Shown in pieces: positions 52,038 to 54,153 of a stretch of DNA of 64,000 bases. Position 1 is the first letter of the stretch. Each line of letters starts with the position of its first letter. The translations under genes were made by a program, and so were the position numbers. Below the pieces are notes generated by a model that was not told the DNA's origin, made no database searches, and was given only the letters and a program-made list of their open reading frames with translations. The stretch spans positions 17,008 to 81,007 of the forward strand of contig JAJRTJ010000002.1 of assembly GCA_024278335.1 (NCBI GenBank). The letters run 5' to 3'. This stretch comes from an archaeon. Its GTDB lineage: Archaea; Nanobdellota; Nanobdellia; Pacearchaeales; GW2011-AR1.

Positions 52038-52823
52038 ATGACCAACAAAGTTTATTTAATTTCACAAAGAGTAAGAATCTTAGATGATTCTGGTTTGGAA
52101 GAGTATAGAGAATCAGTAAAGTCTTATAATTCTGAAAAAGCAAGAGCAACACTTGGAGAAGGCAATGAAAGAGTTTCTTCAAAAGGGGGATTGGTTGCAG
52201 TAAGTTCACCTTTTATTATTTTACAATTTGCACACTTAGATTCAAGTGCACAAGGAATTCTCCCAAATAAAGATACTCCTGCCACAAGACAAGAAATTGA
52301 ACAAGCAATTTCAAGAGACCCTTCTTTTTTAAGAGGAAACGAGGTTGATTTTGGATTAGCATTAGTTACTGAAGAAGATTCCTATAACCCAAATGACTTG
52401 CTAGCCAGAACATTGGCAGAACAGCTACAAGAAAGAGGAATAGAATTAGGAACCGGAAAATTAATTCCTTTTTCAACTTTAGCTAAACCTGTTGAACATC
52501 CTGGATCAGATTATGGTCTTGTTTTTAATTTAAATGATTCCGCATCAAGAGAGAATATTTTAGATTTAGAAGAATTTAATTGGGATATTAGATCAAGAAA
52601 AAGAGGCCTTGCGAGAGCTTATCTGATCGACAGGTACTGGGGTTGCGACGTCAGGAATCTTGATCTCCCTTACAGCAATGGCAGGATAGTGGGGGTGGGG
52701 TGGGAAGACGCGCCGAAAAATTTAACATTAGGTTCTACTAATGAGAAATGGAGACAAGCTTTTGAAAAAGCCAAAATTCCAGGAAATTACGAATTTGTAA
52801 AACAACATTTACAAGACGATTAA
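52038..52823 (+). CDS. DGR target (variable) protein; VR near C-terminus
   Basis: 261-aa ORF, GC-richer than its surroundings. Codons ~190-217 (LARAYLIDRYWGCDVRNLDLPYSNGRI) correspond to the variable repeat matched by the downstream template repeat. Confidence 0.6.
   Translation: MTNKVYLISQRVRILDDSGLEEYRESVKSYNSEKARATLGEGNERVSSKGGLVAVSSPFIILQFAHLDSSAQGILPNKDTPATRQEIEQAISRDPSFLRGNEVDFGLALVTEEDSYNPNDLLARTLAEQLQERGIELGTGKLIPFSTLAKPVEHPGSDYGLVFNLNDSASRENILDLEEFNWDIRSRKRGLARAYLIDRYWGCDVRNLDLPYSNGRIVGVGWEDAPKNLTLGSTNEKWRQAFEKAKIPGNYEFVKQHLQDD
52607..52687 (+). repeat. DGR variable repeat (VR)
   Basis: 81 bp with 66/81 identity to TR 52998-53078. 14 of the 15 mismatches are at positions where TR has A. 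Confidence 0.75.
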
Positions 52824-52930
52824 TTTAAAAATAAGAAATTCTTTCTAACATTCCTAGCCATGTTGGGTGGCTGGGCTATACGCCAATTTACTAGTGCATT
52901 ATTTTAGTTTCTTTTAAGCCATAAAATACA

Positions 52931-52952
52931 GAAATTTCTTACGAGAAATTTC
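52931..52952 (+). repeat. perfect hairpin GAAATTTCT-tacg-AGAAATTTC between target gene and TR
   Basis: 9-bp perfect stem with a 4-nt loop, 45 bp upstream of the TR. It could be a terminator or a DGR cis element. Confidence 0.5.
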
Positions 52953-52997
52953 AGTGAAGTCCAAAATGACCTAATTGATATAATTGGCTATTATTTC

Positions 52998-53078
52998 CCT
53001 TGCAAGAGCTTATCTGAACAACAGGAACTGGAATTGCAACAACAGGAATCTTGATAACTATAACAGCAATGGCAGAAT
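52998..53078 (+). repeat. DGR template repeat (TR)
   Basis: AAC/AAT-rich; it translates in the VR frame to LARAYLNNRNWNCNNRNLDNYNSNGRI. It lies 23 bp upstream of the likely RT start ATG 53101. Confidence 0.75.
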
Positions 53079-53100
53079 TGCTCCGCCAGCCAGGTTTAAA

Positions 53101-54153
53101 ATGCAAATTTGTGAAAATATTTATTACAAAATTTATGAATGGAAAAATCTTGTTCTTGCCTACAAAAAGGCAAGAAAAGGGAAAACAAAAAAAGATTATG
53201 TAATTGAATTTGAAAAACAACTAGGTAAAAATTTAAGACAATTAAGATTTGAACTAATGACCTTAATTTATTTTCCACAACCACTCAAAACATTTATTTT
53301 ACAAGACCCAAAAACTCGCAAAATTTCAAAATCAGATTTTAGAGACCGGGTGGCCCACCACGCAATTTGCAATATCCTTGAACCTATTTTTACAAAATCT
53401 TTCTTGTGCAAATCAAAAAGAAAAGGGAAATCTCTTTGCTATTAAAAGGTTCGAGCTTTTTAAAAGAAAAATTACTAATAACCTTCAATCCTCTGCTTTT
53501 TGTTTAAAATGCGACATAAAACATTATTTTCAAGAAATTGATCCCCCTGTTCTTTTTGGGATTATTCAAAGAAAAATTAAAGATAAAAAAGTCATTTGGC
53601 TGATAAGGAGAATCGTAGAGAGAGAGAGAGAGAGAGAGAGAGAGAGAGAGAGAGAGAGAGAGAGAGAGAGGCACGCAGTTCTATTAATAGAAAAGGCATG
53701 CCGTTAGGTAATTTAACTTCTCAATTTTTTGCTAATGTTTATTTGCATGATTTAGATTATTTTGTAAAGAATAAATTAAGATGCAAGTATTATCTCCGCT
53801 ATGTTGATGATTTCGTCCTTCTTCACAAATCAAAAAAACAGCTTGAAATTTGGAAAGATGAAGTAAATCTTTTTTTGCAAAACAGATTAAAATTGGAATT
53901 ACATCCCAAAAAATCAAAAATAATCTCCTTCTCAAAAGGAGTAGACTTGGTTGGATTTAGAATTTTCTGGAAACACAAGCTTATTAGAAAAAGGAGTATA
54001 AGAAAAATGTTTCATGCTCTAAATAGATACAACAAAGATCAAATTCCCTATGAAAAATTCAAAGAAATATTTCAAGGACGGAACGCTTATACTTCTTGGA
54101 CAGATAGTTATAAATTAGTGAAAAAGATTACTAAGAAAATACACCTCCCCTAG
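53101..54153 (+). CDS. DGR-type reverse transcriptase, reading frame disrupted twice as sequenced (frame 1 to 2 near 53436; frame 2 to 1 at the (AG)27 tract)
   Basis: RT motifs YFPQPLKTFILQDPKTRKISKSDFRDRVAHHAICNILEPIF; CKSKRKGKS | LFAIKRF; LKCDIKHYFQEID; GMPLGNLTSQFFANVYLHDLD; YLRYVDDFVLL; LELHPKKSKI...VDLVGFRI. The motifs are spread over ORFs 52984..53445, 53378..53707 and 53596..54153. Confidence 0.75.
53617..53670 (+). repeat. (AG)27 dinucleotide microsatellite inside the RT gene
   Basis: 54 nt of perfect AG repeats, translated as (ER)n / (RE)n. The RT frame changes across it. Confidence 0.95.

Follow-up and report, generated by a model that had tools for sequence, protein, structure and literature searches.

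The prototype diversity-generating retroelement (DGR), that of the Bordetella phage BPP-1, has the arrangement mtd-avd-TR-brt, in which the template repeat (TR) lies just upstream of the reverse transcriptase (RT) gene. The Avd accessory protein accompanies approximately 74% of DGRs and is not universal. DGRs of DPANN archaea and their C-type-lectin (CLec) targets are already known (Paul et al. 2015, PMC4372165; AvpA structure 5ioo, PMC5006420; Wu et al. 2018, PMC5758913), and in the last of these studies architecture B3, in which avd is reversed, makes up 90% of the CPR/DPANN set. Structured RNA motifs have also been described near RT genes, among them RT-16, which was grouped with the motifs RT-1 to RT-19, only RT-10 being assigned to a DGR (Weinberg et al. 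2017, PMC5737381). The type III mod gene of Mycoplasma mycoides carries an intragenic (AG)12 tract and undergoes repeat-mediated phase variation (PMC3498834). This report focuses on a DGR cassette found in a 64,000-nucleotide stretch of archaeal DNA from contig JAJRTJ010000002.1 (hereafter the window, in which all positions are counted unless a locus is named) and on the perfect (AG)27 tract that interrupts its RT gene. With a probability of roughly 0.7, we read it as a chromosomal, Avd-less DPANN DGR whose RT is dead in this copy, and the (GA)n tract as a contingency switch that gates the RT at the DNA level across the clade.

The cassette consists of a target gene with its variable repeat (VR), an RT-16 RNA, the TR and the RT, in this order. 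The elements that precede the RT are the following:

52038..52823, forward strand: target (variable-protein) gene, 261 aa, intact, with a predicted C-type-lectin-like fold.
52607..52687, forward strand: VR, encoding target residues 190-217, on predicted β-strands 191-222.
52689..52704, forward strand: G-rich tract directly 3′ of the VR, encoding the conserved V-G-V-G-W; a candidate initiation of mutagenic homing (IMH) site.
52825..52836, forward strand: TATA-like box (TTTAAAAATAAG), read from the sequence, approximately 25 nt upstream of the 5′ end of RT-16.
52853..52996, forward strand: RT-16 RNA (Rfam RF03019), structured and non-coding, separated from the TR by 1 nt.
52998..53078, forward strand: TR, with 32 adenines and many AAC/AAT codons.

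A repeat search of the interval 51500-55000 recovered the VR and the TR as its largest repeat family, a direct repeat of 81 nt with 81% identity and a spacing of 391. Compared base by base, the two copies share 66 of 81 positions, and 14 of the 15 mismatches fall on TR adenines (seven A>G, five A>T and two A>C), the sole exception within the 81 nt being a T>C at TR 53059. Hence 14 of the 32 TR adenines are changed in the VR, vs. 1 of the 49 other TR bases (Fisher p = 2.9e-6). The similarity stops at 52687-52690 / 53078-53081, past which the two flanks are unlike: the VR is followed by G-rich coding sequence, and the TR by a GC-rich element that precedes the RT start. Lengthening the repeat by 2-3 nt brings in a second non-adenine mismatch (TR T53079 vs. 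VR A52688), and the two non-adenine mismatches of this lengthened repeat are slightly more than the usual 0-1 in relatives, in line with an RT that is dead in this copy. The adenine-tolerant scan with which the VR/TR pairs of the window and of related loci were found detected no second VR-like copy in the 64-kb window. Structure prediction from a 95-sequence alignment, built from an exhaustive profile search, gives the target a confident C-type-lectin-like (CTLD) fold with the VR at its binding face; the VR thus lies within the gene of a protein whose scaffold is of a kind that tolerates variation (CLec or Ig).

Stitched across its frame breaks, the RT aligns end to end with the Bordetella RT (bRT; 8ub7, the best PDB match, E = 2.2e-39, residues 6-325), compared with E = 1.3e-18 for the group II protein LtrA, and its scores against the group II, retron and DRT families of NCBIfam fall far short of the cut-offs. 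Its homologues number more than 7000 proteins, the best being 58-65% identical and mostly 323-396 aa long, and the top ones carry the source names Woese-, Pace- and Nanoarchaeota, among others. The target-TR-RT order recurs in five related loci, where the RT adjoins a TR/VR pair with A-biased mismatches. Searches with tblastn found one RT and one target in the 64-kb window, with no second RT and no target paralogue. Judged by these alignments, the window RT is a DGR-clade RT, and the region is a real DGR with all sequence parts present.

This agrees with the central claim of the original prediction, made from the letters and their translations, that the locus is a DGR: the adenine-biased VR/TR pair, the bRT-like RT, the related loci and the CTLD target all support it. 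Its 81-bp VR recurring 391 bp downstream as TR was recovered by the repeat search, its count of 66/81 identities with 14 of 15 differences at TR adenines and one T/C exception was reproduced exactly, and its translations of both repeats are correct; mismatches free of a TR-adenine bias, the outcome that it had named as contrary, were not what the Fisher test revealed. The resemblance that it had seen to a C-type-lectin-type scaffold is matched by the structure prediction, and the DGR assignment of the RT, as opposed to group II or retron, by the scores above. Three of its details did not hold: the VR stops short of the 3′ end of the target gene, 44 residues of the 261 coming after it; the motif read as CKSKRKGKS was taken from the wrong frame; and the cassette is not richer in GC than its neighbors (0.345 and 0.312 vs. 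0.338 and 0.344). The "unusual RT state" that it had mentioned is real, the RT being split over three reading-frame pieces (53092-53445, 53378-53707 and 53596-54153). The gene is made up of the following parts:

53092..53403, forward strand: RT pseudogene segment A, from the N-terminus to motif 2 (...ILEPIFTKSF), in the frame of 53092.
53400..53404, forward strand: junction left by an 11-nt deletion; the missing bases are ATTTATGAT and 2 nt more in homologues, and their loss takes away the I-Y-D of the conserved FIYDSCAN and shifts the frame by +1.
53404..53616, forward strand: RT pseudogene segment B, SCANQKEKG ... LKCDIKHYFQEID ... LIRRIVE, with the motif 3 Asp, in the +1 frame.
53617..53670, forward strand: perfect dinucleotide tract (AG)27, out of frame, at the loop that links RT motifs 3 and 4; detected by a tandem-repeat finder (TRF).
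53671..54153, forward strand: RT pseudogene segment C, KGMPLGNLTSQ, YVDD and thumb, in the frame of segment A; Pfam RVT_1, E = 5.7e-11.

At the first junction, an alignment of the DNA with three homologues reads TCTTT(C/T)ATTTATGAT..TGTGC in loci L001, L002 and L005 and TCTTTCTTGTGC in the window. The loss of I-Y-D is also visible in the protein alignment, and its Y and D are nearly invariant in the clade; the true motif that follows is S-C-A-N-Q-K-E-K-G in the +1 frame, corresponding to SCANRKGKG in homologues. The (AG)27 tract, to which the original prediction made no reference, separates motif 3 (DIKHYF) from motif 4 (GMPLGN) at a loop that bRT has in a shorter form. No other dinucleotide repeat in the 64-kb window exceeds 5 units, and, at 54 nt, the tract is the longest of 138 at the RT loop among the matches listed (the next being 40, 37, and 34 nt). 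Removal of one unit or addition of two would rejoin segments B and C, and the simulated loss of one unit yields only a 294-aa stretch devoid of the N-terminal segment A. Because no open reading frame (ORF) at the locus contains all the catalytic motifs (RT motifs 1-7), the window RT gene is a pseudogene that is not translatable as one protein; the 11-nt deletion and the out-of-frame (AG)27 leave no intact, expressible RT. Its inactivation looks recent, since the stitched RT, lesions aside, differs at 11 of 143 highly conserved columns, within the range of 2-11 observed in intact homologues. Substitutions occur at positions invariant in 16 homologues, i.e., A>C in LK-A-DIKHYF (53506-53508, beside the motif 3 Asp) and W>R in QG-W-NAY (54085-54087). 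With the RT broken by both the deletion and the out-of-frame tract, the VR of the window is most likely frozen within a target gene that is still intact.

Tracts of the same kind recur at the same loop in related RTs. At L005, a sister locus with the same target family, the RT is split only at a (GA)13 tract in this loop. A search for (GA)n, a gap of 2-32 nt and GMPLGN codons, requiring at least nine GA units in the scan of genomes and at least six in the scan of metagenomes, yielded 16 genome loci, all in metagenome-assembled genomes of DPANN archaea, and at least 120 metagenome loci. The frame was then defined for 109 dereplicated related DPANN loci, among the matches listed, that have a perfect (GA)n of at least six units and a defined upstream frame: 16 are in frame (ON), 46 are shifted by +1 and 47 by +2 (OFF). 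In-frame loci are thus fewer than the one third expected by chance (16/109, binomial p = 8.7e-6). The median ORF is 202 aa upstream of the tract and 157 aa downstream, and the gain or loss of a single unit restored, in simulation, an ORF of at least 300 aa in 70 of the 75 complete out-of-frame genes, the window being one of the five exceptions. Both halves of the RT have a dN/dS of approximately 0.1, OFF/OFF pairs included. Throughout 716 kb of tract-bearing loci, dinucleotide tracts of at least 6 units were found exclusively at the RT loop (137 of 137, none elsewhere). RTs with and without a tract are interspersed, with a median identity of 75% among tract-bearing RTs and of 76% between these and the tract-free ones, and short RE runs occupy the loop in 13 of the 120 top-scoring RT homologues. 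At some loci the downstream ORF is far longer than the usual ~155 aa, reaching 445 aa in L071, L081, and L138 and ~280 aa in L008, L019, L035, and others, which suggests C-terminal extensions or fusions of the RT.

Closely related contigs reveal that tract length changes while the flanks hardly do. In eleven sibling pairs, the flanks show 0-1 mismatch in up to 600 nt and the tracts differ by 2, 4, or 6 nt; several lineages have an identical tract length in more than one record. L038 (18-nt tract, OFF) and L099 (20-nt tract, ON) differ at 16 of 1092 upstream positions, and all 16 differences lie inside the VR and at TR adenines. L081 (13-nt tract) and L138 (17-nt tract), both OFF, stand on either side of the in-frame length of 15 nt and differ in the VR at 14 TR-adenine sites; moreover, the VR of L138 repeats a C>T change of its TR, which shows that TR-to-VR transfer occurred after the two loci had diverged. 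L005 and L079, both OFF and with the same tract length, have identical VRs. A 21-nt tandem duplication lies in the TR of L005 (9025-9045 of that locus) and is absent from the VR of L005 and from the near-identical contig L079. VR/TR pairs are alike in OFF and ON loci, with ~15 adenine mismatches in each and 0.9 vs. 0.6 other mismatches. On the evidence of these contigs, VRs turn over in lineages whose RT is out of frame.

The following model can be proposed. A single transcript would start at RT-16 and carry the TR; the RT would make a cDNA of the TR, with misincorporation opposite adenines, and this cDNA would replace the VR, so that the present VR of the window, with its 14 adenine-site substitutions, would be a record of such events. 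The (GA)n would act as a hypermutable repeat at one fixed surface loop of the RT, where the gain or loss of a single unit would move the enzyme between ON (in frame) and OFF (out of frame). The OFF state would lock a useful VR variant, rare ON cells would restart diversification, and most natural populations would be one unit away from ON. The window would represent an end state, in which the RT was killed by deletion and the tract, no longer constrained, then expanded to 27 units. That the (GA)n of this large clade of DPANN-archaeal DGRs is a selected and reversible on/off switch for targeted hypermutation, and that the tract of the window ran away once its RT had died, has in our judgment somewhat better than an even chance of being right. 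Regarding the properties of contingency loci, a perfect simple-sequence repeat inside a coding region is present in the window itself ((AG)27), repeat-number polymorphism among otherwise identical sequences is found in its relatives (11 pairs), and the toggling of an intact ORF by a unit change applies to the clade (70/75) and not to the window, where it gives 294 aa. For a switch in expression or phenotype, the turnover of the VR between ON and OFF siblings is indirect evidence. To our knowledge, no general off-switch of DGR mutagenesis is known, although a binding protein that works ought to pay a price for being rewritten all the time. If the model is true, a repeat-gated RT would be a simple off-switch in one of the most DGR-rich groups of organisms, and one hypermutable site would control another.

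Several points weigh against this interpretation. The switch is deduced from population snapshots of sequence, and the tract lengths are taken from short-read assemblies. The deficit of in-frame loci could arise in part from the way in which loci were selected, a perfect (GA)n of at least six units being required, and active lineages might favor interrupted tracts. A second RT located elsewhere in the genome, beyond the 64-kb window, may provide the activity in trans. Neither the IMH nor the priming site is recognizable. Lastly, slippage at the RNA level or on the ribosome could supply RT from OFF alleles, instead of or besides changes in the DNA.

This last point can be developed into an explanation of its own, according to which slippage on (GA)n, during transcription or on the ribosome, gives OFF alleles a low constitutive expression, tract length tuning the dosage of RT instead of switching it in the DNA. 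The tract would lend itself to this, as all three of its frames read E/R with no stop codon and a 2-nt realignment would keep perfect pairing inside it; both RT halves are conserved, and in-frame alleles are rarer than one third, as if low expression were preferred. However, length varies between siblings at the DNA level, including in an ON/OFF pair that displays VR turnover, and the two OFF frames are equally common (46 vs. 47), whereas programmed frameshifting normally fixes one direction. Slippage as the whole account is therefore considered unlikely, while slippage and a DNA-level switch can both hold and are not exclusive.

Less probable still is that (GA)n is a mere slippage-prone hotspot, out-of-frame copies being decaying pseudogenes or assembly noise that never switch. 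The window itself, a dead copy with a runaway tract, speaks in its favor, the short RE runs of intact homologues could seed expansions, and the interspersion of tract-bearing and tract-free RTs leaves no single conserved origin. Decay is nonetheless difficult to reconcile with halves that are both open and under purifying selection (dN/dS ~0.1) in OFF/OFF pairs, with a full ORF lying one unit away in 70 of 75 OFF loci and with VR turnover at TR adenines between siblings whose consensus is OFF; further points against this reading are that one tract length recurs in several records of one lineage and that 716 kb are free of any other dinucleotide tract of at least 6 units.

For the window alone, it could be argued that the DGR is still active, the frame breaks being assembly errors or bypassed by recoding such that a full-length RT is made. 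Its TR, RT-16, and target gene are indeed intact, its RT is, lesions aside, no more diverged than intact relatives, and segments A and C share a frame. Yet the first lesion, the 11-nt deletion with its loss of I-Y-D, is neither a slippage-prone site nor a 1-nt error, readthrough in the common frame of A and C meets several stops in the B region, and the window is among only 5 of 75 complete OFF loci that lie beyond one-unit repair; this explanation is very improbable. The most doubtful of all, that OFF alleles make the RT in two pieces, the fingers at the N-terminus and the palm/thumb at the C-terminus, with a restart of the latter at the Met of G-M-P-L-G-N, and that these pieces join to form an active enzyme, draws on the near invariance of this Met, on upstream ORFs that end within ~20 nt of it and on the position of the break in a surface loop that is shorter in bRT, and is unlikely because the Met is as conserved in tract-free RTs (102/104), no ribosome-binding signal being evident, off-frame stops being expected anyway in AT-rich DNA and the depletion of in-frame alleles being left unexplained. 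A role of this Met as a restart codon specific to tract-bearing genes was accordingly rejected, and a DNA-level switch in the clade, with a dead RT in the window, remains the interpretation that we prefer.

The RNA that precedes the TR, another element absent from the original prediction, is the second novel aspect of the cassette. The RT-16 match scores 68.7 bits against a gathering score of 50 and covers model positions 1-158 of 158. Since RT-16 abuts the TR in the window and lies directly 5′ of it in 16 of 17 related loci tested, it belongs to the DGR RNA of an Avd-less class of DGRs. The TATA-like box at 52825-52836, which has a similar A/T counterpart at the equivalent place in L005, is the putative promoter of an RT-16-TR-RT transcript. 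Only 13 nt separate the end of the TR from the RT start codon (53092), and the spacer between target and TR is occupied by RT-16; for these reasons, neither interval of the cassette has room for an avd ORF, consistent with the original prediction that none was visible. A search for avd-like ORFs gave a single candidate of 89 aa (52951-53220), which lies antisense over the TR and was rejected as hydrophobic and repeat-derived. The cassette is consistent with architecture A1 of Wu et al. 2018, in which target, TR and RT follow one another and an accessory gene is lacking.

Around the repeats, the GRVVGVG/GRVVVV framework is kept in the target family on the 3′ side of the VR. The TRs of the clade (window 53066-53091 and the TR 3′ ends of ~60 loci) end in a conserved GGAATRG or AGAATRG, with GGGGT.. 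in the VRs; this terminal motif is followed by a short GC-containing hairpin-like element of 10-20 nt and then by an A/T-rich run that extends up to the RT start codon. The terminal motif and the hairpin-like element may constitute the priming or IMH* region.

The target belongs to a family of its own. A word-indexed search returned five proteins, i.e., one identical copy and four relatives, and the exhaustive profile search assembled 395 clusters, none of which has a Pfam domain, so that these small CLec-fold targets are here defined as a family that has no Pfam model. In the VR, its conserved framework reads G-L-[SA]-R-A-x-L-x4-W-x-S-x4-L-x2-S-x3-G-R-V-V, the positions between being hypervariable. 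No N-terminal hydrophobic signal sequence was seen in the target protein, as had been predicted. One framework position (52668-52670 in the VR, 53059-53061 in the TR) is Ser in 81 of 95 family members, and is Tyr (TAT) in the TR and Pro (CCT) in the VR of the window, a departure that may reflect drift after the loss of the RT. At another locus, L006 (2819-3610), a target homologue that is 51% identical (P0124) is followed by PIN/UPF0175 genes, and the annotation downstream of it shows neither RT nor TR nor RT-16; this target may be an orphan, or else be diversified in trans.

The cassette is flanked by a Helicase_C_2/DEAD helicase gene and by the genes of ribosomal proteins P1, P0/L10, and L1, the same setting as given in the original prediction. 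Between the helicase and the DGR, two small reverse-strand ORFs (51358-51750 and 51245-51400) have no Pfam match. Proximity to ribosomal-protein operons is seen both in the window (P1/P0/L1, 54205-56168) and in L002 (SecY/L15/L30/S5 and others, 4674-12684 of that locus), the locus of the closest RT homologue (P0001). Two kilobases from the DGR, positions 56301-57923 of the reverse strand encode a probable surface protein of 540 aa, rich in Asn/Thr, which has a hydrophobic segment at its N-terminus, a Big_13 Ig-like domain and a transmembrane anchor at its C-terminus.

When set beside the systems already described, the window shares with the DGR of BPP-1 adenine mutagenesis between TR and VR, homology over the full length of the RT, a C-type-lectin-like target and a TR located just upstream of the RT. 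On the other hand, BPP-1 has Avd and bears an RT-10 motif between TR and brt (PMC5737381), whereas the window has RT-16 5′ of the TR and no Avd; the window DGR is also chromosomal and archaeal, with a small target of 261 aa in which 44 residues follow the VR, an inactivated RT and an IMH/IMH* that is not recognizable. With respect to the DPANN/CPR DGRs, the order in the window is A1, compared with mostly B3 in Wu et al. 2018, and the hypermutable (GA)n in the RT is a feature of the clade to which the window belongs. The RT-16 RNA of the window resembles the published motif (RF03019; PMC5737381) in matching the full model above its gathering threshold and differs in abutting a DGR TR, by which an orphan Rfam motif gains a place in the DGR RNA of an Avd-less class. 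In the portion of the DGR literature that could be searched by full text, no report of a repeat tract or of phase variation in a DGR RT was found. Surveys that rely on intact RT ORFs would miss or misclassify most such elements, ~85% of the tract-bearing loci sampled being split into two ORFs. The M. mycoides mod gene offers the closest parallel to the tract, having in common with it a perfect intragenic dinucleotide repeat, a frame that shifts upon the gain or loss of units and length polymorphism among otherwise identical sequences; it differs in that the switch is here a proposal drawn from sequences, that the hosts here are archaea and that the gated gene is a targeted hypermutator, the RT of a DGR. 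As a DGR, the window is a decayed new member of a group whose presence in DPANN archaea was already known, and what appears to be new is the repeat-gated RT and the assignment of RT-16 to the DGR RNA.

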